A stretch of DNA of 64,000 nt from Mycobacteriales bacterium (lineage in GTDB: Bacteria > Actinomycetota > Actinomycetes > JAFAQI01), in the NCBI GenBank assembly GCA_035501255.1, contig DATJWM010000086.1, forward strand, positions 8,203 through 72,202, in the 5' to 3' direction. Made by a program: the position numbers and the translations under genes. Shown piece by piece: positions 6,843 to 62,458 of the stretch. How positions within the stretch are numbered: the stretch's first letter is position 1; each line of letters starts with the position of its first letter. The notes under the pieces are model-generated. The model did no database searches. It was given only the letters and a program-made list of their open reading frames with translations, and was not told where the DNA came from.

Positions 6843-7012
6843 TACAGTTTTCTCCTTTAGGAAGTGTCCAGATGCGAAAAGTCGGTCATCATGGACACGG
6901 GCTGGGCCCGTGCCCGGTCCAACGAGACCCTCTCCCCGGCGCCCGGTCCGAAGCCAAAGGCGCCGGGGAGAAGGGTTTTCTGCGGTTATTGCAACTTCAC
7001 CGCCAGGGTGAC

Positions 7013-8290: not shown

Positions 8291-8460
8291 TCGCCCTCCT
8301 TGGAGGCAGTGCGGAGCCTTTCTCCGCCGGGGCGACCCTAGAGGCCCAATCGGGCTATCAAGCCGCTAGATCCTGAACAGCAGACGAACGATCACCACAA
8401 TCGCGCGATAGGCCTGCTATCGCGCGAGGCGGATGGGCTCCGTGTGACCACGGAGCGTCA

Positions 8461-44533: not shown

Positions 44534-44534
44534 C

Positions 44535-45002: not shown

Positions 45003-45014
45003 TGGCTCCGCCTT

Positions 45015-47038: not shown

Positions 47039-47043
47039 GCGTT

Positions 47044-47265
47044 CTACTCCCTCGGGTCAATGCTGGAGAGCGACAGCGCACCCGTCGGGCACGACTCGAC
47101 GGCCGCACGGATGGTGTCGAGCGAGTCGTTGGGGGGCGGGAGCACGATCGCCCGCGCGTCGTCGTCCTGGTCGAACGTTGCCGGCGCCCCCAACGTGCAC
47201 ACGCCGCTACCGATGCACCGGTCTCGGTCGACCACGACCGTCCAGCCCGCGGAGGCGTCAGGCAT
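47044..47265 (-). CDS. Ferredoxin (3Fe-4S/4Fe-4S, P450 redox partner type)
   Basis: Start at internal ATG 47263-47265. 'VVVDRDRCIGSGVCTLGAPATFDQDDD..AVESCPTGALSL'. Confidence 0.75.
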   Translation of the reverse strand: MPDASAGWTVVVDRDRCIGSGVCTLGAPATFDQDDDARAIVLPPPNDSLDTIRAAVESCPTGALSLSSIDPRE

Positions 47266-48472
47266 GGGCAGGCACCGGTGGCTCGGCGGGAGTAAACCGG
47301 TAGAGCGATTCGGCGTTGCCCCGCAACAACTTGTACTGAACCTCGGGCTCGAGATGGGCGATGAGTCCCTTCGCGGTGTCGATACAGTGCGGCCAGGTCG
47401 AGTCCGAGTGCGGATAGTCGGTCTCGCACATGACGTTGTCGACGCCGATCTCATCCAGGCTCGCGATGCCGTGGTGGTCCTCGATGAAGCAGCCGTACAC
47501 GTGGTCGTGGAACAGCGCGCGGATGTCGAGGGTGTCCAGGTCGACGTCCGTGCTCGCGTGGTTCATGAACTTCTGACCCTTGGCCACCCAGTAGCGCTGC
47601 TTGTCGAGCACCTGCTCGGCGCGCTCGAGGAAGTACGGCATCCAGCCGATCTCGCCCTCCGACAAGGCGATCTTTAGCCCGGGAAACCGGGTGAACATCC
47701 CGCTGAACAACCAGGACAGCATCGCGCCCGACGTGCGAATCGCTCCCCACGCGAGGTTGGCCATGAACGGCGAGTCGGGCGCGATCTGGGGGACCTGGGA
47801 GGAGGAGCCGACGTGCATCGACGCGACCATTCCGATCTCGGACGCCGCCGCCATCACGGGATCCCAGTAGCGGCTGGGGTCGTGGATGGTCGGCAGGCCG
47901 AGTGGCGCGGGATTCTCCGAGAACGCAAAGGCGGTTGCGCCTTTGGCCGCACAGCGCTGCATCTCCGTCGCCGCGAGGCTGGGATCCCACATCGGGATGA
48001 GAATGAGCGGGATGTAGCGCCCGGGAGCGCTTGCGCACCACTCGTCGATGATGAAGTCGTTGTACGCCTGCAGGCAGACGAACCCGAATTCACGGTCGCT
48101 CGCATCCATGAACAACTGGCCGCAGAACCGGGTGACCGTCGGGAAGCACAACGAGGCGAGGATCCCCGCGCGGTCCATGTCGGCAAGACGCGCTGTTGGG
48201 TCGTAACACCCCGGCCGCATCTCCTGATAGGTCACCGGCTCCGGACTGAACTCCTCCTTGGACTTGCCGGCCACCGCCGACAACCCGGAGCTGGGGAACT
48301 TCTTCCCGTCGTAGGTCCAGTACTCGCTCTCCCCGTCCTGCACCAGGCGAGGCGCGCGATCACGGTCCTTGGCGGCCACGCGATCGACCCACAGGTGAGC
48401 GGGCTCCAGGATGTGGTCGTCCACGGAGATCAGCCAGTCGAGGTTCGGTTGCGTGGTCATCGTTGACTCCAT
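47258..48472 (-). CDS. Amidohydrolase-2 family (ACMSD-like metal-dependent hydrolase/decarboxylase)
   Basis: Start ATG 48470-48472 ('MESTMTTQPNLDWLISVDDHILEP'). 'SLCFPT', 'GIDNVMCETDYPHSDSTWP'. The upstream extension to 48757 is unsupported. Confidence 0.75.
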   Translation of the reverse strand: MESTMTTQPNLDWLISVDDHILEPAHLWVDRVAAKDRDRAPRLVQDGESEYWTYDGKKFPSSGLSAVAGKSKEEFSPEPVTYQEMRPGCYDPTARLADMDRAGILASLCFPTVTRFCGQLFMDASDREFGFVCLQAYNDFIIDEWCASAPGRYIPLILIPMWDPSLAATEMQRCAAKGATAFAFSENPAPLGLPTIHDPSRYWDPVMAAASEIGMVASMHVGSSSQVPQIAPDSPFMANLAWGAIRTSGAMLSWLFSGMFTRFPGLKIALSEGEIGWMPYFLERAEQVLDKQRYWVAKGQKFMNHASTDVDLDTLDIRALFHDHVYGCFIEDHHGIASLDEIGVDNVMCETDYPHSDSTWPHCIDTAKGLIAHLEPEVQYKLLRGNAESLYRFTPAEPPVPAHA

Positions 48473-48500
48473 CCATTCCAATTCGCCGTCAGTCTGGACC

Positions 48501-49982
48501 TCATGGGCGCAACTCGCCGATCGCGAGGTGCTTGAGCTCCTGGAAGGCACGGATGCCGTCAACACCGCGCTCCCTGCCCAAGCCGCTCTGCTTGTATCCA
48601 CCGCCGGGGGCGTAGGCGCTGAACAAGCCAATGTTGACGTTGACCGCGCCGCTCCGAAGGCGCCGCGCGACCGCGGACGCCGATGCGACGTCGGTCCCGT
48701 AGACCTGCGCCGAGAGCCCATAAATGCTGTCGTTGGCCATTTCCACTGCATGATCAAGGTCGCGATACCCGATCACCGACAGCACGGGGCCGAAGATCTC
48801 CTCGCGCGCGGCCGGGTTGCTGTTGTCGGGAACGTCGAGAACCGTCGGCTCGAAGTAGTACCCGTGAGCGAGATGCGCCGGCCGCTTCCCGCCGAACGCG
48901 ACCGTGCCGCCGTACTCGGTGGCCAGTTCCACGTAGTGCTCGCACCGTGCCCGAGCGCTGGCGTTGATGACCGGTCCGATCAAGGTCGTCGGCTCGGTCG
49001 GGGGCCCCACCGCGAGCGCGCCGTACATCCCCGCCACCTTCGCGAGCACCTCGTCCTTGCTCTCCTGCGGCACGAACATGCGGGTCGCCGCGACGCAGGC
49101 CTGGCCTGACGTCATGGCCACCACCGCCGCGGCGCCCGTCGGCGCCCTGTCGACCGCATCCGGCAAGTAGATCTGCGCCGACTTGCCGCCGAGCTCGAGT
49201 GCGACCCGCTTCACGGTGTGAGCACCCTGGGCGAGGATCTGCTTGCCCACCGCGGTCGAACCGGTGAAGGACACCATGTCGACGCGCGGATCCTGCGTGA
49301 GCCGCTCGGCCACGGCGGAACCAGCCTCCGCCACCACGCTGAGCACGCCAGGAGGGATGCCCGCAGCATCCGCAGCGGACCCGAGCGCAAGCGAGGAGAT
49401 CGGGGTCAGGGGGCTGGGACGCAGGACCACCGAGTTGCCGGCCAACAACGCCGGAACGATCTTCTGAAAGGCCATGATGATCGCGGCGTTGTACGGCGTG
49501 ATGGCGGCGACTACCCCCGCCGGTTCCCAGCGCCGGACGCTCAGGGCGAGGCGACCGTCGGTCAGCTCATCAAGTGGCACCTGGTTGACCTGCTCGTCGG
49601 ACATCGACCGGTAGATGTCGATCAGGCCACGGGCGAGGGAGAGACCGCCACGCAACTGAGTCGTTTCGGCAAACCGGGTCGGTTGCCCGGCCTCGGCCAC
49701 CATGGTCGCGACGAGCGAGTCACCGAGCGACTCGACGTAATCGCAGAGCGCGCTGACCGCAGCCGCCCGCTCTCGCCGGTCCCGATCGGCCCACACGCCG
49801 CTGTCGAAGGAGCGCCGCGCGCCCGCGATCGCCTCGTCGGCGTCCGCCTCCGACGCGCCCAGCACCTCGCACACGGGCTGCTCGTCGGCCGGGTTCTCGA
49901 CCTCGAACGGTACGCCGTCGCTCGACCATCGACCCGCCAGGTAAGAGGCGCGCTCACCGATCAGGGTCGACATCCGGACCAT
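48501..49982 (-). CDS. Aldehyde dehydrogenase family protein
   Basis: 'VSFTGSTAVGKQI', 'ELGGKSAQI', 'MTSGQACVAATRMFV' (catalytic Cys), 'EEIFGPVLSV'. Confidence 0.9.
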   Translation of the reverse strand: MVRMSTLIGERASYLAGRWSSDGVPFEVENPADEQPVCEVLGASEADADEAIAGARRSFDSGVWADRDRRERAAAVSALCDYVESLGDSLVATMVAEAGQPTRFAETTQLRGGLSLARGLIDIYRSMSDEQVNQVPLDELTDGRLALSVRRWEPAGVVAAITPYNAAIIMAFQKIVPALLAGNSVVLRPSPLTPISSLALGSAADAAGIPPGVLSVVAEAGSAVAERLTQDPRVDMVSFTGSTAVGKQILAQGAHTVKRVALELGGKSAQIYLPDAVDRAPTGAAAVVAMTSGQACVAATRMFVPQESKDEVLAKVAGMYGALAVGPPTEPTTLIGPVINASARARCEHYVELATEYGGTVAFGGKRPAHLAHGYYFEPTVLDVPDNSNPAAREEIFGPVLSVIGYRDLDHAVEMANDSIYGLSAQVYGTDVASASAVARRLRSGAVNVNIGLFSAYAPGGGYKQSGLGRERGVDGIRAFQELKHLAIGELRP

Positions 49983-50138: not shown

Positions 50139-51185
50139 ATGACCGTTCCGGTCCCCGACACGCTCGAGGAGGCACTCTCGCCGAGGTGGCTCTCGGCCGC
50201 ACTGCGCCCGCACCTCGGCGACATCGACGTCGTGGACGTCATTCCCGGGCCGGTTGTCAGCCGGATCACGACCAACGCCCGCTTCCGCATTGTGTGCTCG
50301 CGCCCGCTGCCGCCCACCTTCTCTGCGGACCTGTGCGTCAAGGGGTACTTCAACGACCTCGGCCGCGCGGCGCGCGTCGCCGGACCGCCCGAGGCGCTCT
50401 TCTACCGCGACCTCGCCGGCGAGGTCGGACTTCGGACGCTGCGCGCGGTGTACGCCGACGTCGACCGCGACTCCGGTCACGGCGTGATCGTCACCAGGGA
50501 CGTGATTGTGGACGGTACGTCGTTCCTTTCGGCGGCGAGCGAGTTCAGCGTCGACCAAGCGGCGACCAGCCTCGGCGAGCTAGCGCGCCTGCACGCCGCG
50601 ACCTGGAACCGCACCGACCTCGCCGAGCAACCGTGGCTGGCAAGTCGGTTCGACCGGATCGCCTGGCCGTCGAATGACGAACAGATTCGGCGGCAGTTCG
50701 CCGGACCCAACGCAGCAAACATGCCGGCCGCGGCGCGTGACGCGGATCGACTGCTCGCGGCATACCGCATCGTCGAGCAGCTGGCCTCGACCGCCGACCC
50801 GTGGTGCGTCATTCACGGCGATCCTCATCCGGGGAACCTGATCATCGATCGCGCCGGATGCCCGGGGTTCATCGACTGGCAGTTGGTCCAGTGCGGCCCG
50901 TGGTTCATCGACGTCGGGTATCACCTCGCGGCCGCGCTCACCACCGAGCAGCGCAGGACAGCGGGACACTCGCTGGTTCTGCACTACCTCGACGAGCTAT
51001 CCGGACACGGCATCATTCCCCCGGGCGAGCGCGATGCGTGGCAGGCCATCCGCGCTGGCATGGTCCACGGCTTGTTTCTCTGGGCTATCACCCGTTACGT
51101 CGATCCGCCGACGATCGCGATCATGTTGGAGCGTCTCGGCACCGCGGTGGTCGACCACGACGCGTTCGCATTGACGCCGGCCTGA
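50139..51185 (+). CDS. Phosphotransferase (APH/choline-kinase-like) family protein
   Basis: Start ATG 50139 ('MTVPVPDTLEEAL'). Brenner motif 'CVIHGDPHPGNLIID', 'FIDWQLV'. The upstream part of ORF 49218-51185 is antisense to the ALDH gene. Confidence 0.65.
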   Translation: MTVPVPDTLEEALSPRWLSAALRPHLGDIDVVDVIPGPVVSRITTNARFRIVCSRPLPPTFSADLCVKGYFNDLGRAARVAGPPEALFYRDLAGEVGLRTLRAVYADVDRDSGHGVIVTRDVIVDGTSFLSAASEFSVDQAATSLGELARLHAATWNRTDLAEQPWLASRFDRIAWPSNDEQIRRQFAGPNAANMPAAARDADRLLAAYRIVEQLASTADPWCVIHGDPHPGNLIIDRAGCPGFIDWQLVQCGPWFIDVGYHLAAALTTEQRRTAGHSLVLHYLDELSGHGIIPPGERDAWQAIRAGMVHGLFLWAITRYVDPPTIAIMLERLGTAVVDHDAFALTPA

Positions 51186-51198
51186 GTACATTCTTGGT

Positions 51199-51978
51199 GT
51201 GTCGCGTCGCGAACTCGAAGCGGCCATGGGGCTCGTGATCACCAGCACGGACGCCGCGGAGCGGTTCCGTGCCGATCCGGTGCGCTTTGCCGGCGACCTC
51301 GAGATGACCGACGTCGAACGTCGTTGGCTGGTCGAGATGGTCACCGACCTGACCGGGCTCACTCCGAGCTTCGTGGAGAAGCGGCGCCGCCAGCTGTCAA
51401 ACGCGGCGAACCTCACCCTTCGGTTCCTCGGAAGCCGCGGTGACCGCTGGCTGGACAGGTACATCGAGGCCAACCCGCCGGTGCCTGTCGTTGCCGATGA
51501 CCCGGCGCGGTGGATCAGTTGGCTCGTGGCCGAGATCGACGCCCACTCTGCCGACATTGATGGCGTCGCGCTGATCCGCTCGATGGCACAGCTGGATCAC
51601 ATGCGCCACCGCGCGTTTCGGACACCAGGACCGTTGACGCACCACGACGTCGGGGGACCGCCGTCCGCCTCGACGCCGCTTCGGCTCGCCGCCCCCACCG
51701 ACCTCGGCCGATTCGACTACGACGTACGCAAGCTCCGGGACATCCCACCCGAAACCGCCGCGCAGGTCCCCCCGGACCCGTGCTACTTGCTCGTCTACCG
51801 CCAGCCCGGTGGGCGAGTGATGTTCGAGCGAATCGAGAACGAGGCAGTCCTCGACGCGTTGATCGACCTTTCCGGACAGGCCCATCCGATTGACGATCTG
51901 GTTAGCGTGAGCCATCACCCCGACGGGCTGCGGGCCCGGCTGACCCGACTCTACGAAATGGGGGCGTTGACAACATGA
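51199..51978 (+). CDS. Hypothetical protein (possible DUF692 partner, MbnC/DUF2063-like; unverified)
   Basis: 259 aa with no recognised motifs. Sits 13 nt after the kinase and overlaps the DUF692 start (ATGA). Confidence 0.4.
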   Translation: MSRRELEAAMGLVITSTDAAERFRADPVRFAGDLEMTDVERRWLVEMVTDLTGLTPSFVEKRRRQLSNAANLTLRFLGSRGDRWLDRYIEANPPVPVVADDPARWISWLVAEIDAHSADIDGVALIRSMAQLDHMRHRAFRTPGPLTHHDVGGPPSASTPLRLAAPTDLGRFDYDVRKLRDIPPETAAQVPPDPCYLLVYRQPGGRVMFERIENEAVLDALIDLSGQAHPIDDLVSVSHHPDGLRARLTRLYEMGALTT

Positions 51979-52820
51979 CGGCGACGCCGCTGATTGGAGC
52001 GGGCTTCCGACCGGAACTTCCCGGGTTGTTCAACGACCCGGCGGCCGCCGGAATCGACGTGGCTGAACTGATCGCGGATCGGTACTTCGCCGCGGAGGGA
52101 TTCAACCGAGCGTGGGAGCTCGACCTGCTCCGAGAACACCAGGTGCCCACCGTTATCCACGGTCTGTCCGGCAACGCCGCCTCCGCGACCGGTCCGACCC
52201 GTGAGTACCTCGCCACCATCCGGACGCTCGCGGACGCGGTGGACTGCATCGCCTACAGCGACCACCTCGCGCTCACCGGCACGACCGAGCGCTCGCTTGG
52301 CCACCTCGCTCCCAACCGGTTCGACGACGACCTGCTCGCTCATGTCGTGACCAACATCGATCTGATGGCAGACATGACCGACCGGCGACCGAGGCTGGAA
52401 AACCTCGCGACGACGATCATGATGAGCGGATCGACGTACTCCGTTGAAGAGTTCTATCTGCGTCTGTTGGATGCCAGCGACAGGTGGGATTGCCTGGTCG
52501 ACGTCACGAACCTCTGGATCAACGCGCAGAACCGCGAGCTCGACCCGTACGCCTTTGTCGATGCGATCCCGCCGGACCGGCTCCGCTACGTCCACCTTGC
52601 CGGCGGTCACTTCATGCACGGTGAGTGGGTCGACTCACACTCGCACGCCGTGCATGACGGCGCGTTCGACATCCTCGAGCACCTTCTGACGCACGCCGTT
52701 CCCGACGTGATCATCGTCGAGCGCGATACCAACTGGGAAGGGGCCGAGGAGCAGGTGCGCGCCGACATCGCCCGCGCACGCTCACTCGTCGCCGCCTCTC
52801 CTCTCCTCGTGGCCGCCTGA
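51975..52820 (+). CDS. DUF692 (UPF0276; MbnB/TglH-like multinuclear non-heme iron enzyme, TIM-barrel)
   Basis: 281 aa: 'IGAGFRPEL', 'PTVIHGLSGN', 'SDHLALTG', 'LENLATTIMMSGSTYSVEEFY', 'LVDVTNLWINAQN', 'VHLAGGH', 'IIVERDTNW'. These are the conserved metal-ligand / TIM-barrel motifs of DUF692. Confidence 0.75.
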   Translation: MTATPLIGAGFRPELPGLFNDPAAAGIDVAELIADRYFAAEGFNRAWELDLLREHQVPTVIHGLSGNAASATGPTREYLATIRTLADAVDCIAYSDHLALTGTTERSLGHLAPNRFDDDLLAHVVTNIDLMADMTDRRPRLENLATTIMMSGSTYSVEEFYLRLLDASDRWDCLVDVTNLWINAQNRELDPYAFVDAIPPDRLRYVHLAGGHFMHGEWVDSHSHAVHDGAFDILEHLLTHAVPDVIIVERDTNWEGAEEQVRADIARARSLVAASPLLVAA

Positions 52821-52821
52821 C

Positions 52822-54066
52822 ATGAGTCAGATCGACGGTCAGGTCGAACCCGGCGTCGCACTCACCGACCCGTGCGAGACCGCTCGAGTGGTGGGTGAGC
52901 GAGCCGCGCCGTACGTCGCGATTCACGACCGCGAAGGAAGTTTCGTCGTGGAGGGGTACACCGCGGTCCGCGAGAGCGGGTACGGCGTCCTTGCGATTCC
53001 GGCCGATCTCGGTGGTGACGACGCCGACCTCGGGGAGGTGTGTCGGGCGCAGCAGGTTCTTGCCGGCTACTGCGCGAGCACGGCACTTGCCATCGCCATG
53101 CACCACCACACCGTGCTGTCGCTGGCCGTTCGTTGGCGTGCAGGGGACGACGCTGTGGGGACCTTCCTTCAGCGGGTTGCCAGCGAGAACCTGATCCTGT
53201 GCTCGAGCGGCACCGTCGACCCCTCGAAACCCGGCCTGCGCGCCACTCGGGTTGCGGGCGGCTTCCGAGTCTCCGGTCGCCGGCCCTACGCCAGCGGTGT
53301 GCCCGGTGCCGACTTCTTGCTTGCGCTCGCCGGCGACACCAACGGCGAGTGGATCATCAACGTAGTCATCGATCCCGCCGCTGATGGAGTCGTCATCCAC
53401 GACGACTGGAACGGCATGGGGATGCGCGGATCCGGGTCAAATTCGGTCACGCTCAGCGACGTCTTCGTCGCCGACGCGGACACGTACATGCAACGCCCCT
53501 GGCCGCGGCGCGGGCGTCGGCCGCGAGCGGGGGCCGACGGCGCCCAAACGCCTGCACCGCCCCAGGGCACGGTGTCTCCGGCACTGCGACGGCTCCCGTT
53601 GCGGATCCATGGCCTGATGGTGGCGCTTCCGGTGATCACCGCGGTGTACGTCGGTGCAGGCACTGCGATGTACGAACGGGCGGTAGCCCTCCTGAGCGAA
53701 GGTCGACGCGCACACGAAGAGGTCACCTACCGCCTGGTCGGCGAGATGGCCTCCCACCAGCACACGGCTGCGACGGCGCTCGAATCGATGGTCAGTGAGG
53801 TCCACGACGACGCGCTCGGATCCGAAGACCTCTACGTGCGGGTCATGCTGGCCAAACGTCAGGCCGTGCTGGCGTCGATCTCGACGGTGGAGCTTGGGAT
53901 GGAAGCGCTCGGAGCCATGTCCTATGACCGCGACCAACCTTTCGAGCAGGCGCTGCGTGATCTTCGGGCCGGCATCACCCACCCGCTCCCACCTGAACAC
54001 ACCCTCCGCGGAGTCGGTCGCTCGATCATGGTCCGTGCCGACTGGGCTCGCGGAGCGACCGACTGA
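52822..54066 (+). CDS. Acyl-CoA dehydrogenase family (ACAD-like flavoenzyme)
   Basis: 414 aa: 'AIPADLGGDDADL', 'HDDWNGMGMRGSGSNSVTLSDVFV'. Contains a Pro/Arg-rich insertion 'RPWPRRGRRPRAGADG'. Confidence 0.6.
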   Translation: MSQIDGQVEPGVALTDPCETARVVGERAAPYVAIHDREGSFVVEGYTAVRESGYGVLAIPADLGGDDADLGEVCRAQQVLAGYCASTALAIAMHHHTVLSLAVRWRAGDDAVGTFLQRVASENLILCSSGTVDPSKPGLRATRVAGGFRVSGRRPYASGVPGADFLLALAGDTNGEWIINVVIDPAADGVVIHDDWNGMGMRGSGSNSVTLSDVFVADADTYMQRPWPRRGRRPRAGADGAQTPAPPQGTVSPALRRLPLRIHGLMVALPVITAVYVGAGTAMYERAVALLSEGRRAHEEVTYRLVGEMASHQHTAATALESMVSEVHDDALGSEDLYVRVMLAKRQAVLASISTVELGMEALGAMSYDRDQPFEQALRDLRAGITHPLPPEHTLRGVGRSIMVRADWARGATD

Positions 54067-55178
54067 TGGGGAAGAAGTCGACGACCTCCGGCACCAAGGC
54101 CCGCAAGCACAAGAGGAACAAGAAGGTCGAAAGCCGCGGCAACGATCACCCCAACAGCACCGGCCGCCCGGAGAACGAACAGGTGTCGCCGGACTGGCAG
54201 CAGTGGGCGGCGCAGCGGCTCCTCAGCGGCGCACCTCTTGCCGAGGTGATCGCGGCCCTGGTCGCATCGGGGGTGTCCGAACACACGGCCGCGACGCTGT
54301 GCGCGCACACCTATGCCGATCCAATCTTCGACGCGGCGCGGTCGGTCTCCCAACAACTGCGAAAGATCAACTCCACGCTGGCGATTCGCGCCTCGCTCGC
54401 CGCGTTGAATCCCGCGCTGGCGGACGTCGAACGGCGCAGTCGGTTGAGCGCCCGCTCCTTCGTGGAGAAGTACTACGCCGCCAACCGACCGGTGGTTATC
54501 ACCGACGCCGCGAGCCGCTGGCCGGCGATCGAGCGCTGGACGCCCGACTACCTCGTCGAGCAGGTCGGCGGCGAGGAGGTGGAGGTGATGTCGGGCCGCG
54601 ACGCCGACCCCAACTACGAGGTCAACTCCGCCTCCCACAAACACGTCATGCCGTTCGACGAGTACGTGCGCAAGGTTGTCGACACGGGTGCCAGCAACGA
54701 CATCTATCTGGTTGCGAACAACCATCTACTGGACTCGGCTGCCGCCGACGGCCTGTGGTCCGACGTCACGTTGGATAAGCGCTATCTCAACCCGGCCCGC
54801 GCTCGCGGACACACGTTCCTGTGGTTCGGCCCAGCCGGCACCGTCACGCCGTTGCACCACGACACGATGAACGTCATGTTCCATCAGGTCCTCGGGCGAA
54901 AGCGGATCACGCTCATCTCGCCGCTGGACACGCGCTACCTCTACAACTCGCGGTCCGTGTACTCCGACGTTCGCCTCGAGGAACCCGACCTCGAGCGATT
55001 TCCGGAGTTCACCCGCGCGACCCGGACACAGGTCATCGTCGAGCCTGGAGAGGCGCTGTTCATCCCGGTCGGCTGGTGGCACCACGTTGAGGCTCTCGAT
55101 CTCAGCATCAGCGTGTCGAGCACCGCGTTCATTGCCGTCAACAGCTTCGACTGGTTCTTGCCCGACCCGGTCGGATGA
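54066..55178 (+). CDS. JmjC / cupin-8 family Fe(II)/2OG-type hydroxylase-like protein with Lys-rich N-terminal tail
   Basis: 370 aa: 'HTFLWFGPAGTVTPLHHDTMNVMFHQVLGRKRI', 'LFIPVGWWHHVEAL'. N-terminus 'MGKKSTTSGTKARKHKRNKKVE'. Confidence 0.65.
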   Translation: MGKKSTTSGTKARKHKRNKKVESRGNDHPNSTGRPENEQVSPDWQQWAAQRLLSGAPLAEVIAALVASGVSEHTAATLCAHTYADPIFDAARSVSQQLRKINSTLAIRASLAALNPALADVERRSRLSARSFVEKYYAANRPVVITDAASRWPAIERWTPDYLVEQVGGEEVEVMSGRDADPNYEVNSASHKHVMPFDEYVRKVVDTGASNDIYLVANNHLLDSAAADGLWSDVTLDKRYLNPARARGHTFLWFGPAGTVTPLHHDTMNVMFHQVLGRKRITLISPLDTRYLYNSRSVYSDVRLEEPDLERFPEFTRATRTQVIVEPGEALFIPVGWWHHVEALDLSISVSSTAFIAVNSFDWFLPDPVG

Positions 55179-56074
55179 CGGAGCCGGCACCGCCGAGGCG
55201 CCGCGGAGAGCCGCATCAAGGCCCGTTTCGGATTCTGGCGGCACCCGACCCGCGCGGCACGACGATCACGACCTGCGGCTTGGTCGCGACGTTGCCTCGC
55301 TCGGGCAGCTGGCTCCTCTCCGACGCTCTTGCATCGACCGGACTCGTGGGTCAACCGGCCGAATTCTTCCGGCCCGACTACCTCGCGGCGTACCGGCGCT
55401 CGTGGGGTCTTGCTGCGGATTGCTCGACGACCTCCTACGTCGAGGCGGCCATCGACCGCACGGCGTCGGACAGCGGCATCTTCACCGCGAAGTTGCACTG
55501 GTATCAGTTCGAGTGGTTGTGCGAGGAACTTGCGATCGAGCTCGGCGTCGAGTCCCCTCCAACACTCGACCTCATCGCTCCGTACTTTCCGCAACTGCGA
55601 GTCATTCGCCTGACTCGTCGCGACCGTGCCCGCCAGGCACTGTCGTACTACGTCGCGATTCACTCGCAGCGCTGGTTCGACCACGCCCCGCCCGCGGCCA
55701 GGCTGACCGACGATCCCGACTGGGCACCGGATCTCCAGCAGGTGCGGTTCCTCGACGATGCGCTGGCGAATCACGAATCCTGCTGGGAGCGGGTTCTCGC
55801 GAGTGCGTCAGCCCCGACCCTGACCGTCGCCTACGAGGACCTCGTCGCCGACCGGGAGCTGACCTTGACAACGGTGCTGCGCTTCCTCGGTGTTGAGGCC
55901 GATCCGCAACTGGTCAGTGCTCCGGCGGGTCTGAGTCGACAAGCCGGGAAATACACCGACATGTGGGTACGCCGCTACGAGGGGGTTCGTGACCTGCTGC
56001 AACCGCTCACGAGCGCGCACGTCTGGTCCGATCAGGTCGGCGGGTACGTGCCTCGGGACTCCGCCGACGGGTAG
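55175..56074 (+). CDS. Stf0-family sulfotransferase (PAPS-dependent carbohydrate sulfotransferase-like)
   Basis: 299 aa: 'TLPRSGSWLLSDALASTGLVGQPAEFF' (5'-PSB loop), 'TAKLHWYQFEWL', 'IRLTRRDRARQALSYYVAIHSQRW'. Start overlaps the JmjC stop. Confidence 0.6.
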   Translation: MTEPAPPRRRGEPHQGPFRILAAPDPRGTTITTCGLVATLPRSGSWLLSDALASTGLVGQPAEFFRPDYLAAYRRSWGLAADCSTTSYVEAAIDRTASDSGIFTAKLHWYQFEWLCEELAIELGVESPPTLDLIAPYFPQLRVIRLTRRDRARQALSYYVAIHSQRWFDHAPPAARLTDDPDWAPDLQQVRFLDDALANHESCWERVLASASAPTLTVAYEDLVADRELTLTTVLRFLGVEADPQLVSAPAGLSRQAGKYTDMWVRRYEGVRDLLQPLTSAHVWSDQVGGYVPRDSADG

Positions 56075-56214
56075 CGACCGTCACGCGCCAGCGAGGTGTG
56101 TCACACTCGCTGTCAACCCTGGGTGACATCGGGTTCGCCGAGCACTATCGTTCCCCACCGGAGCCCCAATCGTCGGGTGATCCAGGTCCACCGCCGCATT
56201 CCAGGGGTTGTGAC

Positions 56215-57108
56215 ATGTCAGAGGACGAGCTTGCCAGGCGCTACATCCAAGGGCGGATCGATCGACGGGCGTTGATTCGCGGGCTGGTTGGATCCGGCCT
56301 GACGATGGCGGCGGCCGCCACGTTCGCCGAGGCGCTCGCCACCCCGGCTGCGGCAGCAGCCACCGCCACGGTGGGGAAAGCCGGCTCGAAGAAGCCATCC
56401 AACCGACCGGTCATCTCCTCGCTCTCGCCGGACCATGGCACGACGCACGGCGGCACCAGGGTCACGATTCGCGGTCACCACCTCTCTGGCGCGACCGCGG
56501 TCCACTTCGGCGGCAAGAAGGCGAAGATCCACAAAGAGGTGTCATCCTCCGAACTTCAGGTGACCTCCCCCAAAGAGGGTTCGGGCACCGTGTTGGTGAC
56601 GGTGACGACCGGGCACGGGACGTCGGCCAAGACCGGCGCCTCGGCGTTCACTTACCACCACCCGGCGGCGCCCGTCGTCCACTCCGTGTCGCCGTCCTCG
56701 GGACCGGCAGCCGGCGGGACGACAGTGACAATCTCCGGTAGCAATCTGTCGAAGCCGAAGTCCGTGCACTTCGGATCCCACAAGGCAACGATCACAAGTT
56801 CCTCCGCCTCCAAGGTCGTCGTCACGTCTCCGGCGGGTACCGGACTGGTCGACGTGACCGTGACCACGACCGGTGGCACCTCACACAAGCACGCCTCGGC
56901 CTCCTTCACCTACACGTCGACGCCCACACCGACCCCCACACCGACCCCGACACCGACGCCGACTCCCGGATGTGGCTGCGGCGGGTGCGGCGGATGTGGC
57001 GGGTGCGGCTGCGGCGGCTGCGGCGGGTGCGGCTTCGGCTGCGGCGGCTGCGGCGGGTGCGGCGGATGCGGCTGCGGGTGCGGACCGAGCGGGAACGCGA
57101 AGAAGTAA
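56215..57108 (+). CDS. Tat-secreted protein with two IPT/TIG domains, (TP)10 linker and C-terminal poly(Cys-Gly-Gly) tail
   Basis: Start taken at ATG 56215 (the ORF opens at 56098). Tat signal 'DRRALIRGLVGSGLTMAAAATFAEALATPAA'. Two ~90-aa repeats 'PVISSLSPDHGTTHGGTRVTIRGHHLSGATAVHFGG..A' / 'PVVHSVSPSSGPAAGGTTVTISGSNLSKPKSVHFGS..A' (IPT/TIG). Then 'TPTPTPTPTPTPTPTPG' followed by 'CGCGGCGGCGGCGCGGCGGCGFGCGGCGGCGGCGCGCG' (14 Cys). Confidence 0.6.
   Translation: MSEDELARRYIQGRIDRRALIRGLVGSGLTMAAAATFAEALATPAAAAATATVGKAGSKKPSNRPVISSLSPDHGTTHGGTRVTIRGHHLSGATAVHFGGKKAKIHKEVSSSELQVTSPKEGSGTVLVTVTTGHGTSAKTGASAFTYHHPAAPVVHSVSPSSGPAAGGTTVTISGSNLSKPKSVHFGSHKATITSSSASKVVVTSPAGTGLVDVTVTTTGGTSHKHASASFTYTSTPTPTPTPTPTPTPTPGCGCGGCGGCGGCGCGGCGGCGFGCGGCGGCGGCGCGCGPSGNAKK
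56917..57084. repeat. Coding microsatellite: (ACNCCN)n followed by (TGCGGCGGC)n-like GC-rich tandem repeat
   Basis: 56917-56966 encodes (TP)n. 56968-57084 is an imperfect tandem repeat of 'ggctgcggcgggtgcggcgga'. It is open in several frames on both strands (spurious ORFs 56873-57151, 56906-57115, 56970-57266). Confidence 0.8.
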
Positions 57109-57154
57109 CCACCACCAGCGCGGGTCAGGTCGATCGGCCCTCAGGGAATAGCGA

Positions 57155-57913
57155 TTACCCGTGCGTCCAACGGATCCGGAACGTGTGCCTCCGATCCGCG
57201 ATCACACCCGGCCTGGATCGGACCGTGCCCGCGCGCCGCATGGTGACCGCGCGGGTGTGTGGGTAGGCGGTGATGGCCTGCGAACCCTGACCGGTCGAGG
57301 CCCGGGTGCGTGAGAAGCTCACGGGAGTGAACCGGGCAAGCGGGTCGTACCCGCACGTCTGGCAGCTCCTGGGCGAGGAGACGATCCACTCGGCCGACGC
57401 GGCCTTAGCGGTCCCCTTCCGGGTTGTCGCAAACGACCAACCGGCACTGTTCGTCAGGCGCAGCCGGTAGCGCGAACCGGTGCGCCGCACGGTCGCTGTC
57501 AGCCGGTCCCCCGGGACTACCGGGTACGTCGTCGCCGCGAGGAAGTGCACCGGCTTCGGCCACATCTGCCACCACACCCGATAGCGAGGCGTGCCGTCGA
57601 CACACGTCGTCTTCGAGCCGATCTGCTCGACGGTTCGGCTGCGGTAGCCATCGAGGCCGTCCCAGATCGCTACCGATGCATGCCCGGTCGAATCGGGACA
57701 CCGAACGGTGGGCTCCTTCCAGGTCCCGACCACAGCGGCGAACCGGTGCGGGGAGAGCACGACGTACCCGGACCAGTTCGGCGAGTGCACCGCACGGGGG
57801 GCCGCGGCGTGATTCGGCAGGCCGATGGCCGGCGGGACGAGGGCCAGGACGCCGGCTGCGGCTGTGAGCACCAACCGCCAGCCGATCCGGGCACCGATAC
57901 CGACCATCGTCAA
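57155..57913 (-). CDS. Peptidase A4 / G1 (glutamic peptidase, scytalidoglutamic-type) family secreted protein
   Basis: 252 aa. N-terminal TM/signal. G1 hallmark 'SPNWSGYVV', beta-sandwich, conserved 'AEWIVS'. Confidence 0.5.
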   Translation of the reverse strand: MTMVGIGARIGWRLVLTAAAGVLALVPPAIGLPNHAAAPRAVHSPNWSGYVVLSPHRFAAVVGTWKEPTVRCPDSTGHASVAIWDGLDGYRSRTVEQIGSKTTCVDGTPRYRVWWQMWPKPVHFLAATTYPVVPGDRLTATVRRTGSRYRLRLTNSAGWSFATTRKGTAKAASAEWIVSSPRSCQTCGYDPLARFTPVSFSRTRASTGQGSQAITAYPHTRAVTMRRAGTVRSRPGVIADRRHTFRIRWTHG

Positions 57914-59226
57914 CCCCCGACGAGCTCAGCGAGCGCGGTGGTGATCGCGACCGTTGGGCCGTCGGGTCGGCGCCACTCACCGAGCTCCTCGATCAAGCTC
58001 CGGCCGCGCGATCCGACCTCATGCAGAGCTGCGGGATCGGACAGCCAGGAACGCAAGGTATCCGCCAGGGCATGCCGGTCGGTGGGATCGTCGACCCGAA
58101 TGTAGTTCTGCCCCGGGACCAATCGCGCCCGGAACGGCACCTTGTCGGCAATCTCACCGGACAGCACGAGCGGCCGGCCGCGGCTCATTACCTCCTGCGG
58201 CACGCGACTGCGGTGCAGCGGCACATCGAAACGGCGCTCGAGCACGCACACCATCGAGCACGCGTCGAGGAATCCCGGAACCCGCCACGGGGCGATGAAC
58301 GGGAAGAGCACGGCCCGCTGCCCGATCCGATCAGTGCGGGCCACCTGGTTGAGATAGCTGCGATGGAGGCCGTCCGGGCCCCCGATCGCGCCGAGGAGGG
58401 TGATCTTCCGGGTCTCTCCCACCTGGTCGAGCGCACTAAGCAGATCGTAGGAACCTTTCGATTCGGCCACTTTGCCGTAGATACCGATCGTCGGGGCGCC
58501 CAGAAGGTCGCCGCTGCGAGCCAGGTTGTCGACCAGGACGCGTCGGGTCGACGGCGACAGTCCCATCGACCGGTACCTGTCCGCGCCCAGCGCCGCGAGC
58601 TCCTCAAAGTCCGTCATCGCGTCGGCCGACGCGAAGTACTCGGGGATCCGGCCACGCTCAACCATTCGCAGGATTGTCGGATCGGCCCCAAGCTTCTCCA
58701 GCAGTTTGGCGCTGCCCGGGCCGGTCAGGATCCGGTCTGCCTGCTTGGTCAACCAGCGGTACGCCGATCGGAGCTCCGGTTGGCGGGCGAGCCTGCCCAC
58801 GTCGCTCCCGGCGTGACGCACGATCAGCGGAATCCCGGCCGCCGTCGCCACTTGTGCGGCCACCAGGGCATAGGGCTCCCAATACCACCCGAGGACTGCG
58901 TCGTAGTCGTTGGTCTCGGTGAGCTGCGACCCAAGCCCGAACAGCTGCGACGCGAACGGTTTGGCCCAGGGGACGTAACTGCTGTCCTCGAGCGCGGTCG
59001 TGTGGTGAACCTTCACCCACCCTCCGGTCGGTGAGGCAGGAGGCTCGCTCAATCGCACCCGGTCACTGTCGGTCATCAGCGCGCGAACCGACGGTTCCGC
59101 TTGCTCGGCGTTGGTGACCACGTCGACACCGTGCCCGGCCTCGGCGATCAGTCGGGTGGTCAGGTAGGTCTGACTGGCGGTGCCCCCCTCGATCGGCGGG
59201 TACTTGCCGAACACCAGAAGCCGCAC
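57910..59226 (-). CDS. Glycosyltransferase family 4 (GT-B)
   Basis: 438 aa: 'RLLVFGKYPPIEGGTASQTY' N-terminal GT4 motif, C-terminal 'E..G.P' region 'RGRPLVLSGEIADKVP'. Confidence 0.65.
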   Translation of the reverse strand: MRLLVFGKYPPIEGGTASQTYLTTRLIAEAGHGVDVVTNAEQAEPSVRALMTDSDRVRLSEPPASPTGGWVKVHHTTALEDSSYVPWAKPFASQLFGLGSQLTETNDYDAVLGWYWEPYALVAAQVATAAGIPLIVRHAGSDVGRLARQPELRSAYRWLTKQADRILTGPGSAKLLEKLGADPTILRMVERGRIPEYFASADAMTDFEELAALGADRYRSMGLSPSTRRVLVDNLARSGDLLGAPTIGIYGKVAESKGSYDLLSALDQVGETRKITLLGAIGGPDGLHRSYLNQVARTDRIGQRAVLFPFIAPWRVPGFLDACSMVCVLERRFDVPLHRSRVPQEVMSRGRPLVLSGEIADKVPFRARLVPGQNYIRVDDPTDRHALADTLRSWLSDPAALHEVGSRGRSLIEELGEWRRPDGPTVAITTALAELVGG

Positions 59227-59350
59227 CCGCGAACGTTACCGCGATAAGACCGCCTCCCTGGACCGTTCGGGCGGCCCGCGGAGCCCGCCCCTTCACGCCG
59301 ACTTCGCAGTCCGGGAGACACCGTCCGAGCGCGCAGTGCAGGATGGTCCG

Positions 59351-62300
59351 ATGCTGCGCCGCCTCCTGCTCTCCCTCGCCGCTATCTCGGTCGTCGTCGT
59401 TGCCGTCGCCCTTCCGGTCGGCCGCGCCACCGCGAGCTCGGCGAGCTCCGACACCGCGGGGTCGACACTGGGCGACACGACGATCTCGGTGAACGACCTG
59501 CGCGACGGCTGGGACCAGGACGAACCCCAACTGTCGCCTTCGATCGTCGGCAGCTCGGACTTCGGTCAGCTGTTCAGCACGCAGGTGGACGGCCAGGTGT
59601 ATGCCGCGCCACTCGTCGTTGACCGCACCGACACCTCGCCCGGAATCCTGATCGTCGCGACCGAGAACAACGACGTCTACGGGTTGAACCCGGTCGACGG
59701 ATCGATCGAGTGGGGGCCGATCAATCTCGGGACGCCGTGGTCAGCGAGCGTTCTGGGGTGCGGCGACCTCACGCCGAACCTGGGCGTGACGTCGACACCG
59801 GTGTTCGACCCGTCAACGGACACGGTGTATGTCATGGCCAAGGACGCTCCCGACGGGGCGACGAGCACCGACCCCCGGTTCCAGTTGCACGCGCTCGACG
59901 CCCAGACCGGGGTGGAGCGCACGGGCTGGCCGGTGACGATCAGCGGGCACCCGGACAACGATCCAACCCGGACGTTCAACCCGGAGACCGCCGCACAACG
60001 CCCCGGCCTCCTGCTCCTCAACGGCGTGATCTACGCCGGCTTCGCGAGCCACTGCGACTACGGGCCCTACGTCGGGTACGTCGTCGGCGTGAGCACCTCA
60101 ACCGCAACCAGGACCGCAATGTTCTCCACCGAGGCCGGATCGGACAATGGAGAAGGCGGGATCTGGCAGGGCGGTGGAGGTCTGGTCTCCGATGGGGACA
60201 ACCAGATCATCGTCTCCACCGGAAACGGCAACACCGCCCCGGTCGCGCCGAGCGACGCACCGCCCGCCGACCTCAGCGAGGCGGTCGTGCGACTTCAGGT
60301 GCAATCCGACGGCACTCTGAAGCCGACCGACTGGTTCAGCCCGGCGAACGGCGCATCGCTCAACCAGACCGACTCCGACCTCGGGTCCGGCGGTCCACTC
60401 GCGATTCCCGACGGCTACGGAACGTCGAGCTATCCGCACCTGTTGGTGCAAGCGGGCAAGGACGGGCGGGTCTTCCTGCTGAACCGCGACGAGCTCGGCG
60501 GGGAGGCCCAGGGGCCGGGCGGCACGGACGACGTCTTGAACATGATCCAGCTGGGGCACGGACAGTGGGGTCACCCGGCGTTTTGGGGAGGGACGCCGGA
60601 CACCGACTCGGCGGGTGGCTACGTCTACATCGACCCATCCGAGAGCAGCCTGCAGGCCCTCAAGCTCACCGCGAACGGCTCGGGAACACCGCAGCTCGTG
60701 GCGACGGCCACCAGCGCCAATATCTTCCACTACACCTCCGGCTCACCGATCGTCACCTCGGACGGAACGACCGCAGGCAGTGCGCTCGTCTGGGTCGTGA
60801 GCGTTCATGACTCGAGCGGTGCGCAACCGATGCTCTACGCCTACAACGCCGAGCCCGACAACGGCGTCCTCGACAAGGTTTACAGCGCACCGCTCGATCC
60901 GCCAGGGGTCGCGAACACCGACGCACGGGGGGTGAAGTTCACCACCGTGGCCACCGACAACGGACGGGTCTTCGTCGGCACCCGCGATGGCTACGTGTTC
61001 GGGTTCGGCCATCCGTCGGGTTCGCCGGTGTATGCACCGCACACCGACTTCGGACCCGTGCCCGTCGGGACGAGCTCGTCCACGGTTGCGGTGACCCTGA
61101 CGGCCTCCCGGCCAGTCGAGGTGACCGGTGTCTCGACGAATGCGCCGTTCCACCTCGTCGACACGACGCCGGCGCTTCCCGTGACCCTCGACACAAACGA
61201 CACGATGACGGTCGACCTCACGATGACACCGACCGTCCCGGGCGACCAATCCGGGACGCTCACCGTGGACACCGCCGAAGCAGGAGGGGCGATCACCGGC
61301 ACGGTCGACTTCGGTCTGTCCGGTTACGGCACCAGCCCGGGTCTGGTGGCGAACCCATCGTTCGTCGACTTCGGGACCGTACCGATTCCCGGTTACGCCT
61401 CCGAGGGGGTGAACCTCGTCAACACATCGGGGGAGGACGAGACGATCTCGAGCGTGACCCCGCTGAGCGCGCCGTTCTCCTCCACCGACCTGCAGTCATT
61501 GGTGGGCCAGGTGCTGCCGGCGGGCGCATCGATCGCCGTGCCGTTGGTGTACTCGCCGACAATCGCGTCGACCAACGACGCGGCCACGCTCACGATCAGT
61601 GTCACCAGTCAAGACAACCCCGACCCTGTGCCCGTGTCGATCCCATTGTCGGGCGCGGCGATCGTCGGCGCGCCGAAGCTGGTGCGCAAGCCACGCACCC
61701 TCGACTTCGGGCCGGTCGCCCAAGGTGCGTCCCGCACGTTGACGTTCCAGATCTACAACGCGGGCAACGTCTTGCTGAAGATCGACAAGGCCAAGGCGCC
61801 GTTCGGTCAGTTCTACGCTGCACTGCCAGTCGATGAAGGGGCGACGATCCAGCCCGACCAGGCCATCGTTCAATCGGTGACCTTCGCGCCAACGAAGAAG
61901 GGCACGTCGACCGCGACGTACGAGGTCACCGGCAATGACTCCTCGGGAGCGCAGTACGAACAACTGGTCGGCCTCGACGACCAACTCACCGATCGCTACA
62001 ACCGCGATCAAGCGCTGCAGAGCCAACTCGGGAAGCCCCACGGCCCGACCACCAAGGTGGGCGGAGGATACGAACGGCTCTTCGCGCACGGCGAGATGTT
62101 CTGGTCAACCAAGGGTGGAATTCGTGCGTTGACGCGGCCCATTCTCACCAAGTACCTCGCGTTGGGTGGTCCGAGCGCCGCGATCGGCTACCCGTCGTCC
62201 AACGTCGTCGCGCTGTCGCCCAAGGGCCATCGGGTGCGGTTCGTCAGCGGCTGGTCGATCTACTCATCGAAGCGTTCGGGCGCCTGGTCGGTGCACGGGC

Positions 62301-62458
62301 GCACGGGCACGAAGTGGATCAAGCTCGGCGCGCAGCACTCCTCCCTCGGTTTTCCGACGAGCGATCCGAAGGCGATCGCCGGCGGGACCAAGCAGACCTT
62401 CGAGCACGGCTCGATCACCTGGACGAGGGCGCACGGGTACGTGGTCACCCACACCTGA
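59351..62458 (+). CDS. Large secreted protein: PQQ-like beta-propeller + Ig-like/choice-of-anchor-D-like domains + C-terminal LGFP repeats
   Basis: Start at ATG 59351 ('MLRRLLLSLAAISVVVVAVALPVGRATA'). Propeller repeats 'NDVYGLNPVDGSIEWG', 'DTVYVMAKD..LHALDAQTGVERTGWP'. C-terminal LGFP repeats 'LGKPHGPTTKVGGGYERLFAHGEMFW' and 'LGFPTSDPKAIAGGTKQTFEHGSITW'. Confidence 0.65.
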   Translation: MLRRLLLSLAAISVVVVAVALPVGRATASSASSDTAGSTLGDTTISVNDLRDGWDQDEPQLSPSIVGSSDFGQLFSTQVDGQVYAAPLVVDRTDTSPGILIVATENNDVYGLNPVDGSIEWGPINLGTPWSASVLGCGDLTPNLGVTSTPVFDPSTDTVYVMAKDAPDGATSTDPRFQLHALDAQTGVERTGWPVTISGHPDNDPTRTFNPETAAQRPGLLLLNGVIYAGFASHCDYGPYVGYVVGVSTSTATRTAMFSTEAGSDNGEGGIWQGGGGLVSDGDNQIIVSTGNGNTAPVAPSDAPPADLSEAVVRLQVQSDGTLKPTDWFSPANGASLNQTDSDLGSGGPLAIPDGYGTSSYPHLLVQAGKDGRVFLLNRDELGGEAQGPGGTDDVLNMIQLGHGQWGHPAFWGGTPDTDSAGGYVYIDPSESSLQALKLTANGSGTPQLVATATSANIFHYTSGSPIVTSDGTTAGSALVWVVSVHDSSGAQPMLYAYNAEPDNGVLDKVYSAPLDPPGVANTDARGVKFTTVATDNGRVFVGTRDGYVFGFGHPSGSPVYAPHTDFGPVPVGTSSSTVAVTLTASRPVEVTGVSTNAPFHLVDTTPALPVTLDTNDTMTVDLTMTPTVPGDQSGTLTVDTAEAGGAITGTVDFGLSGYGTSPGLVANPSFVDFGTVPIPGYASEGVNLVNTSGEDETISSVTPLSAPFSSTDLQSLVGQVLPAGASIAVPLVYSPTIASTNDAATLTISVTSQDNPDPVPVSIPLSGAAIVGAPKLVRKPRTLDFGPVAQGASRTLTFQIYNAGNVLLKIDKAKAPFGQFYAALPVDEGATIQPDQAIVQSVTFAPTKKGTSTATYEVTGNDSSGAQYEQLVGLDDQLTDRYNRDQALQSQLGKPHGPTTKVGGGYERLFAHGEMFWSTKGGIRALTRPILTKYLALGGPSAAIGYPSSNVVALSPKGHRVRFVSGWSIYSSKRSGAWSVHGRTGTKWIKLGAQHSSLGFPTSDPKAIAGGTKQTFEHGSITWTRAHGYVVTHT

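Follow-up and report, generated by a model that had tools for sequence, protein, structure and literature searches.

The last gene in a run of same-strand genes within a 64,000-nucleotide (nt) stretch of actinobacterial DNA (contig DATJWM010000086.1 of a Mycobacteriales bacterium; the whole stretch is hereafter called the window) encodes a protein of 297 amino acids (aa) that closes on a Thr-Pro linker followed by a tail of tandem Cys/Gly repeats. We favor the reading that this Cys-Gly tail is the repeat core acted upon by an adjacent pair of proteins, a member of the MNIO family (oxidative enzymes that depend on multinuclear non-heme iron) and its partner, and that its cysteines would thereby become thiooxazole-type, metal-binding heterocycles; by analogy with characterized MNIO systems we hold this to be likely, if well short of assured. 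MNIO clusters of this kind, with the Cys-tail protein as their probable substrate, are conserved, and so far undescribed, in uncultured soil actinobacteria. The original prediction for this DNA had placed its emphasis on slippage of the repeat and had missed the conserved MNIO context. It is this conserved cluster around a Cys-modifying MNIO, rather than slippage, that we regard as the most likely reason for the tail to exist.

A conserved MNIO cluster around the Cys-tail gene

A genome scan with the single MNIO sequence of the window found nothing, while a search with an alignment of its clade succeeded, and 19 genome and 37 metagenome loci were fetched, plus three looked up directly. When a profile of the N-terminal signal was run over six-frame translations of these loci, it picked out one open reading frame (ORF) per locus. 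The full design of the protein (signal, Pro-rich linker and (C-x-x)n tail) stands beside partner, MNIO and flavoenzyme genes at 13 distinct loci, the window included; three more with frameshifts inside the repeats bring the total to 16 distinct loci, and a further six are cut by a contig end. The hosts of the 16 are soil and peat metagenome-assembled genomes (MAGs) from two actinobacterial classes. Every related locus with an intact frame retains the (C-x-x)n core (the tail of L013 is out of frame), and each related locus with a cupin gene also has a family-signal gene adjoining it. The clusters hold no other conserved candidate substrate, the Cys-tail gene being the only conserved non-enzyme gene in those that are complete.

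Ordinarily the cupin and Cys-tail genes share a strand, with the partner, MNIO and flavoenzyme genes divergent from them on the other. In the window lineage this has been rearranged into a single collinear run, in which most neighbors abut or overlap (the gaps are 14-41 bp after the kinase-like gene and 140 bp before the Cys-tail gene), the Cys-tail gene comes last, and the MNIO gene lies 3.3 kb upstream of it (Table 1). The association has survived the rearrangement, and co-location across 16 loci despite such changes of gene order is hard to explain without a functional link.

Between signal and linker, the protein itself has been freely exchanged, the intervening region consisting of 0, 2 or 4 TIG domains or of His-rich (HPTP)n tracts. 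The TIG-less versions (L003, L009, L010, L022, L024) comprise little beyond signal, linker, Cys core and a basic follower. In TIG-less orthologues the His-Pro-Thr-Pro tracts, with up to ~30 His, sit between the signal and the (TP)n linker, which suggests a second metal-binding element. About half of the tails are then followed by a basic segment with an "SPL" motif, seen as W-x(4-6)-S-P-L-(R/S/T) in the followers of the L003, L005, L010, L013, L014 and L021 proteins and of the database proteins P0078 and P0272; this could be a recognition or cleavage site, or a target of the JMJD5-like hydroxylase.

The MNIO scores 132 bits against its nearest NCBIfam model, BufB (cut-off 310), and 114 bits against HvfB (cut-off 360), and so belongs to neither family. 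Its matches in the PDB are 3BWW and TglH (8HCI). A 32-member alignment of the clade shows no variation at ten residues (H62, D96, H97, E142, D176, N179, H207, D220, H222 and E249); they sit in HGLS, DHL, EN, DxxN, HLAG, DxH and E motifs, most within the stretches aligned to 3BWW and TglH, and we take them to be metal ligands as in the MbnB and TglH structures. The clade is sharply bounded, with some 110 proteins at 47-71% identity and the next at no more than 38%, all of them from metagenomes or MAGs.

At the related loci the MNIO gene is in every case immediately preceded, with an overlap, by the partner gene. For the window partner the match to HvfC has an E-value of 0.0048 and that to NGO1945_C one of 0.0029, while among 12 members of the partner family HvfC is matched by five (best 8.5e-7), NGO1945_C by four, and DUF2063 by a single one at 0.099.

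One subclade has the MNIO and the flavoenzyme fused, in four independent contigs, into an uninterrupted ORF of ~700 aa, and this fusion argues that both enzymes act on the same substrate. The flavoenzyme has the acyl-CoA dehydrogenase (ACAD) fold, as do KijD3, MsuC and DszC, flavin monooxygenases that oxygenate N or S atoms. The cupin in turn resembles human JMJD5 and FIH, which hydroxylate protein residues.

The repeat tract and the protein that carries it

The tandem repeat proposed at 56917-57084 is real and coding: it forms the 3' end of a genuine gene, with coordinates, codons and Tandem Repeats Finder in agreement, and these positions bracket linker and core exactly. It codes for the Thr-Pro linker and Cys-Gly tail of a protein that is probably secreted. 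In the linker, at 56918-56963, Tandem Repeats Finder detects period 6/12 arrays that match at 92% for period 12, and for the Cys/Gly stretch (56967-57083) periods of 9, 24 and 30 with scores of 102-117 and matches of just 71-80%. The description of the copies as near-perfect therefore goes too far for the array as a whole, though it contains an exact 28-nt duplicate at 57006 and 57036 (period 30) and further exact repeats of 23 and 18 nt. By comparison, when these 168 nt were shuffled 2000 times, the longest exact repeat averaged 8.3 nt and never exceeded 15 nt. The G+C content of the repeat segment is 79%.

The frames were also said to be open on both strands, and this is so. Across 56901-57100, four of the six are stop-free, and the other two have one stop each, near the end of the stretch; all three spurious overlapping ORFs that had been described (Arg-Ser, Ala-Gly and Arg-Leu rich) are found in the ORF list. 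The Cys/Gly frame is the true one, because it is continuous with two IPT/TIG domains and because orthologues keep the C-x-x pattern using other synonymous codons.

In L001 and L002, both conspecific with the window, two independent gene callers open the gene at the ATG corresponding to 56215; this has a Shine-Dalgarno-like AGGGG motif 9-13 nt upstream, and a promoter-like site lies upstream of the gene at 56123-56151. The sole hydrophobic stretch of the 297-aa protein is its signal, laid out in the window as D-R-R-A-L-I-R, 16 uncharged residues, and then ALA. The family follows the motif (S/T/D/N)-R-R-x-(L/M/F)-(I/L/M)-(R/H/Q), 16 uncharged residues and A-x-A, and its alignment shows the RR pair, G13, L24, G28, A34 and F37 to be invariant. 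From these motifs the Cys-tail protein would be a substrate of twin-arginine translocation (Tat). The Pfam TAT_signal model gives no match on the isolated N-termini. A C-terminal sorting signal, whether MYXO-CTERM-like or LPXTG-like, was considered and rejected, as there is no hydrophobic segment after the Cys region.

A leader search over 1.84 billion representatives found the same type of N-terminus heading many unrelated, presumably secreted proteins, an NHL-repeat protein among them. As the signal occurs on so many unrelated proteins, we read it as a general export signal, and the idea of a dedicated leader for a peptide that is synthesized ribosomally and modified post-translationally (RiPP), recognized by the partner, was dropped. 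The form MS(K/R)(D/E)ELVxAYxxGRISRRxFIRxLVxxGV...YA..L heads ~45 representative clusters (P0246-P0291) of otherwise unrelated proteins, and looks, by its pattern of residues, like an unnamed and unusually conserved twin-arginine signal variant with a fixed n-region. In two orthologues, L045 2644-3705 (-) and L049 8178-8840 (-), the signal ends in a lipobox-like ...ADALAAC, and these may, going by that motif, be lipid-anchored Tat lipoproteins.

Beyond the TIG domains found by Pfam, the window protein belongs to none of the NCBIfam families (no match at E <= 0.01). It likewise has no match to the known precursor families (DUF2282, Buf_6/12Cys, EGKCG repeat), and its sequence contains no EGKCG or Lys-Cys motif. 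Rfam finds nothing within 48.5-59.5 kb.

Proposed modification, export and metal binding

The gene structure, the gene neighborhood, the MNIO motifs and the C-x-x periodicity are observed here; the modification with its chemistry, Tat export and metal binding are inferred. We propose that the MNIO, together with its HvfC-like partner, would oxidize each Cys of the C-x-x/C-G-G repeats in the cytoplasm, giving a thiooxazole-type heterocycle or the isomeric oxazolone-thioamide; with a repeat period of 2-3 residues, heterocycles would be packed very densely along the product. The ACAD-fold flavin monooxygenase, fused to the MNIO in some lineages, would act on the same substrate, and the JMJD5/FIH-like hydroxylase, the sulfotransferase and the glycosyltransferase would add decorations. 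The folded, modified protein would then leave the cell via Tat; the twin-arginine signal is consistent with export of a protein already folded and modified. Once outside, the poly-heterocycle tail would be displayed on, or cleaved from, its TIG/Pro-Thr stalk, with a secreted glutamic peptidase as a protein that could release it, and would bind a metal, most likely copper. The His-rich (HPTP)n linkers of orthologues fit such a metal-related role.

A bolder step, which we regard as possible rather than probable, would be to see in these loci a distinct class of Tat-exported, protein-tethered poly-heterocycle metallophores of uncultured soil Actinomycetota. Here a (C-x-x)n tail, carried on a TIG or His-Pro-Thr-rich stalk, would be worked on by MNIO and flavin monooxygenase together, with a sulfur-oxidized heterocycle chemistry undescribed for MNIOs, and then decorated by hydroxylase, sulfotransferase and glycosyltransferase.

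Several points weigh against modification of the tail by the MNIO pair. The tie between tail and MNIO is one of gene neighborhood only, and the Tat assignment one of motif inspection. The MNIO falls far under the curated BufB, HvfB and MbnB cut-offs, so that its reaction may differ from theirs. The likeness of the window partner to HvfC/DUF2063 is weak (E about 0.003-0.005), a PDB profile search with it came back empty, and a single-sequence AlphaFold model of it was unusable (pLDDT 42.7). The N-terminal signal is not specific to the family, and accordingly no claim is made for it as a RiPP leader of a dedicated kind. The basic "SPL" follower is missing from the window tail, which ends instead in GPSGNAKK. 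Finally, six distinct loci of the clade carry the partner-MNIO pair with no visible Cys-tail gene.

Cys-rich, Gly-rich segments can bind metals without any modification, and the tail might be an unmodified metallothionein-like metal site, or else serve a secreted TIG protein as a disulfide cross-linking anchor, with the enzymes of the cluster acting elsewhere. The His-rich linkers of orthologues point to metal binding either way. We nevertheless consider an unmodified tail unlikely, given the co-location of tail and enzymes across 16 distinct loci and two actinobacterial classes despite changes in gene order, and given that the clusters offer these enzymes no other conserved candidate substrate.

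Length variation between strains and between species

A different origin for the repeat, and the one closest to the original prediction, would be a contingency-type tract in which slippage diversifies a surface protein, so that strains differ in its length and Cys number. Two metagenome contigs, L001 (ENA ERZ27256576) and L002 (JGI 3300032954), encode an MNIO identical in amino-acid sequence to that of the window and allow the question to be asked of conspecific DNA; look-ups with the flanking sulfotransferase and peptidase returned only these same two contigs. Relative to the window, L001 has 13 mismatches and L002 has 11, with one gap each. That gap falls in the TP linker, where the window has (TP)8 and both L001 and L002 have (TP)13, an in-frame change of 30 bp; with three sequences compared at strain level, it might be an assembly artefact. 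The Cys/Gly core and its flanks, on the other hand, are base-for-base identical in all three. Repeat length thus does differ between strains in the linker, while the tail, for which hypervariability between strains had been claimed, shows no differences at all (100% DNA identity among these three sequences).

Between species the picture changes. The tails of 12 other full-length orthologues hold 6-20 Cys, and two loci whose MNIOs are 89% identical have tails of 9 and 8. Recent unit duplications can be seen at the DNA level, an 18-nt unit occurring four times in L010 and TGCAGTAGC four times in L024. In most orthologue tails, however, C-x-x is kept at the peptide level with synonymous codons mixed, which argues for selection on the peptide pattern rather than for free slippage. 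The predicted slipped-strand expansion and contraction is accordingly borne out for the TP linker, with its 30-bp indel, and across species, with their varying Cys number and the duplications in L010 and L024. Slippage is real but secondary: it acts on linker length between strains and on Cys number between species.

As an account of why the tail exists, a contingency-type hypervariable repeat can call on the in-frame linker difference between conspecific assemblies, the range of Cys number across species, the identical tandem DNA units of L010 and L024, and the exact 28-, 23- and 18-nt repeats of the window tail itself. Even so we give it little credence. The tail DNA is unchanged in three conspecific sequences despite 11-13 single-nucleotide differences and the linker indel (rare variation could escape a comparison of this size), most tails are maintained as peptide repeats by mixed synonymous codons, and the conserved tie to a Cys-modifying enzyme cluster supplies a functional reason for the periodicity. 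That the tail stayed invariant in three strains while the adjoining linker changed we count in favor of its being an MNIO substrate.

Loci without a Cys-tail gene

The six loci that pair partner and MNIO with no Cys-tail gene nearby (L015, L016, L017/L044, L041, L025 and L047), together with the fact that gene callers often miss RiPP precursors, would suit a true MNIO substrate that is a small uncalled peptide or is encoded elsewhere, the TIG/Cys-tail protein then being an accessory (carrier, receptor or immunity protein), but we think this very improbable, since four of the six (L015, L016, L017/L044 and L041) also lack flavoenzyme and cupin and so represent a different cluster type, and since the Cys-tail gene is the only conserved non-enzyme gene and its TIG-less versions have the layout of a precursor. 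As for the remaining two, L047 has no Cys-tail gene in the 3.5 kb upstream. In L025 a 919-aa protein with an N-terminal CxxxCxxC (radical-SAM-like) motif, at 5715-8474 (+), precedes the partner-MNIO pair in place of the Cys-tail gene, and this locus, too, looks like a different cluster type.

Gene calling and database coverage

The repeat had been described as a trap for gene callers, and this proved apt. In L003 the homologous Cys-tail gene went uncalled by the JGI caller, which instead annotated a 55-aa ORF antisense to it, at 7232-7399 (+). In three Nanopore MAG loci, L008 7007-7759 (-), L013 6762-7748 (-) and L023 8154-9053 (-), signal and tail lie in different frames, with frameshifts inside the repeats that reflect either homopolymer or repeat sequencing errors or else pseudogenes.

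Exact look-ups of the 297-, 336- and 307-aa proteins returned nothing, a word-indexed search with the whole protein gave generic TIG proteins and one real family member, P0078, and a leader-profile search of 5.8 billion proteins recovered three fragments only. With open frames, missed or miscalled genes, and long-read frameshifts all acting together, the substrate family is almost absent from protein databases, and the trap explains how it has escaped ORF-based mining. Such genome mining would overlook the family, whereas a six-frame search beside MNIO genes recovers it.

Genes around the cluster

The coordinates of all features are collected in Table 1. A peptidase A4 gene stands beside the cluster in four lineages at 38-49% identity (in the window, and at L022 6239-7105 (-), L023 12106-12999 (-) and L024 6374-7201 (-)), which makes its product a possible candidate for the processing protease. 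Just beyond the glycosyltransferase gene, window 59180-62458 (+) encodes a protein of 1092 aa that combines ASH/HYDIN Ig-like domains with LGFP cell-wall-binding repeats. On the other side, window 41975-49982 (-), equivalent to L001 1-7999, holds genes for a CoA-transferase, an AMP-binding ligase, an F420H2-dependent quinone reductase, a P450, an SDR, a ferredoxin, an amidohydrolase and an aldehyde dehydrogenase, a minus-strand run that looks like a separate catabolic cluster. In L003 an IS630-like transposase gene (HTH_23/28/29/32) at 7928-8968 (-) lies between the Cys-tail and partner genes.

Table 1. Features of the Cys-tail gene, its repeat, the surrounding cluster and selected related loci (window positions unless a locus is named)
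Feature	Coordinates	Strand	Description and basis
Cys-tail protein gene	56215-57108	+	297 aa: signal, 2 x TIG, (TP)8, Cys/Gly core, GPSGNAKK, stop
N-terminal twin-arginine-type signal	56215-56340	+	MSEDELARRYIQGRIDRRALIRGLVGSGLTMAAAATFAEALA; family alignment, motif inspection
Two IPT/TIG (Ig-like) domains	56407-56922	+	Pfam PF01833, 8.9e-32, two stretches; boundaries approximate
Ser codon	56917	+	Start of repeat stretch 56917-57084; codon read-out
(Thr-Pro)8 linker	56920-56967	+	DNA period 6/12; Tandem Repeats Finder
Gly	56968-56970	+	Between linker and core; codon read-out
Cys/Gly core, first to last Cys	56971-57081	+	CGCGGCGGCGGCGCGGCGGCGFGCGGCGGCGGCGCGC; 37 aa, of which 14 are Cys; CG and CGG units intermixed
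Gly, then PSGNAKK and stop	57082-57084 (Gly); 57106-57108 (TAA)	+	Codon read-out
Spurious overlapping ORF	56873-57151	+	92 aa, Ala/Gly-rich; alternative frame of repeat
Spurious antisense ORF	56906-57115	-	69 aa, Arg/Ser-rich; ORF list
Spurious overlapping ORF	56970-57266	+	98 aa, Arg/Leu-rich; ORF list
APH/EcKL kinase-like gene	50139-51185	+	ORF could start as early as 49218; in window lineage only
Partner protein	51226-51978	+	250-259 aa, no Pfam family; remote relative of HvfC/NGO1945-type RiPP maturation partners
MNIO (DUF692, MbnB/TglH/ChrH family)	51975-52820	+	281 aa; Pfam PF05114, 7.2e-49
ACAD-fold flavoenzyme	52822-54066	+	Probably flavin monooxygenase; closest to 5Z8T, KijD3, MsuC, DszC
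Cupin_8/JmjC 2-oxoglutarate hydroxylase	54066-55178	+	Protein-hydroxylase type; Pfam 1.3e-44; PDB JMJD5 6.7e-37, FIH 1e-20
Stf0-type sulfotransferase	55175-56074	+	Pfam PF09037, 1.6e-26; recurs in most related loci
Peptidase A4 (glutamic peptidase)	57155-57913	-	N-terminal hydrophobic signal; convergent with Cys-tail gene; Pfam 3.4e-25
GT4 glycosyltransferase	57910-59226	-	Possible accessory gene, convergent; homologues at 50-51% identity in L020, L022
HPTP-tract orthologue, L003	7027-7842	-	
HPTP-tract orthologue, L009	7083-7742	-	
HPTP-tract orthologue, L010	7841-8728	-	
HPTP-tract orthologue, L013	6847-7683	-	
HPTP-tract orthologue, L022	8269-8982	-	
HPTP-tract orthologue, L024	8353-9033	-	
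MNIO-flavoenzyme fusion, L045	4179-6389		
MNIO-flavoenzyme fusion, L046	581-2776		
MNIO-flavoenzyme fusion, L047	4831-6567		
MNIO-flavoenzyme fusion, L049	9908-12046		

Comparison with known systems

Precursors of thiazole/oxazole-modified microcins (TOMMs) of the heterocycloanthracin type have a Gly-rich C-terminal core of many C-x-x triplets, which YcaO cyclodehydratases cyclize. The Cys-tail protein likewise ends in a Gly-rich C-x-x triplet core, but here the enzyme is an MNIO, and in place of an NHLP or other TOMM leader the core is carried by a TIG protein that bears a signal. Among the Pfam-annotated genes ~14 kb upstream and 5.7 kb downstream there is no YcaO cyclodehydratase or McbC-type dehydrogenase, and with no YcaO among the neighbors a TOMM system was rejected.

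In methanobactin biosynthesis, an MNIO likewise turns Cys of a ribosomal peptide into a copper-binding heterocycle, in that case an oxazolone-thioamide. The modified Cys of the precursor MbnA precede small residues (Gly/Ala, then Ser/Thr), and would in this respect resemble the C-[AG]-[ST] units of orthologue tails. MbnA is, however, short (~20-30 aa); two of its Cys are modified, and it carries no export signal. Since the window MNIO scores 34.6 bits against the MbnB model TIGR04159 (cut-off 325) and no neighboring protein matches MbnC, a methanobactin system was rejected as well.

Protein-sized MNIO substrates have been proposed before, and in this the Cys-tail protein has company. Among the proteins for which modification by MNIOs has been suggested are some of Actinomycetota that end in Cys/Ser/Gly tails (Antoine et al., 2025; PMC12452194), and the putative adjamnio-I precursors described there have 8-21 Cys in 122-293 aa and non-DUF2063 "PME-type 2" partners. 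The TIGR04222 membrane proteins are, with adjamnio-I, putative substrates of similar kind; the window protein has neither a match to the TIGR04222 model, on which ground that assignment was rejected, nor a transmembrane core. From adjamnio-I the present system is set apart by gene order, which there runs adjamnio-I, MNIO, partner, and here partner, MNIO, flavoenzyme, the substrate gene being either divergent or last in the operon; this distinction is drawn by description and gene order, and the two sets may overlap. Tat signals, IPT/TIG domains, and cupin/JmjC or acyl-CoA-dehydrogenase-like genes are not mentioned in that paper (PMC12452194), and our literature searches found no description of the MNIO cluster type seen here.

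The closest parallel is with the captophorins and bufferins (FonA/FonBC, HvfA/HvfBC, gonophorin, BufA/BufBC), where an MNIO and its partner are likewise encoded beside a substrate with an export signal, and where the core is likewise built of short tandem repeats with one Cys in each. In fontiphorin and oxazolin, MNIO and partner turn each Cys of the tandem EGKCG repeats into a copper-binding 5-thiooxazole, at a cost of 4 Da per repeat (PMC12668002), and in the bufferins, whose precursors carry export signals, the heterocycles bind copper (PMC11626156). Against the EGKCG 5-mer, the repeat of the window has a period of 2-3 (C-G-G, C-[AGS]-[STG]) with no Lys adjoining Cys; its signal is by inspection of twin-arginine type where theirs is Sec; and its substrate can be a folded protein of 2-4 TIG domains. 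The partner gene here precedes the MNIO gene, and its product has no DUF2063 signature. The ACAD-fold flavoenzyme, JmjC hydroxylase and sulfotransferase are additional, and the hosts are uncultured Actinomycetota rather than Pseudomonadota. The system is one that would work like a captophorin or bufferin while lying outside them by precursor family, Sec signal and MNIO cut-off and, less clearly, by its partner. If our reading of it is true, the reach of MNIO chemistry would widen from small Sec-exported peptides in Proteobacteria to folded Tat-signal proteins of uncultured soil and peat Actinomycetota, the recurrent pairing of MNIO with a flavin monooxygenase, fused in some lineages, would hint at new follow-on chemistry, and a triplet-repeat core, with potentially up to 14-20 adjacent heterocycles, would join the known types of MNIO substrate.

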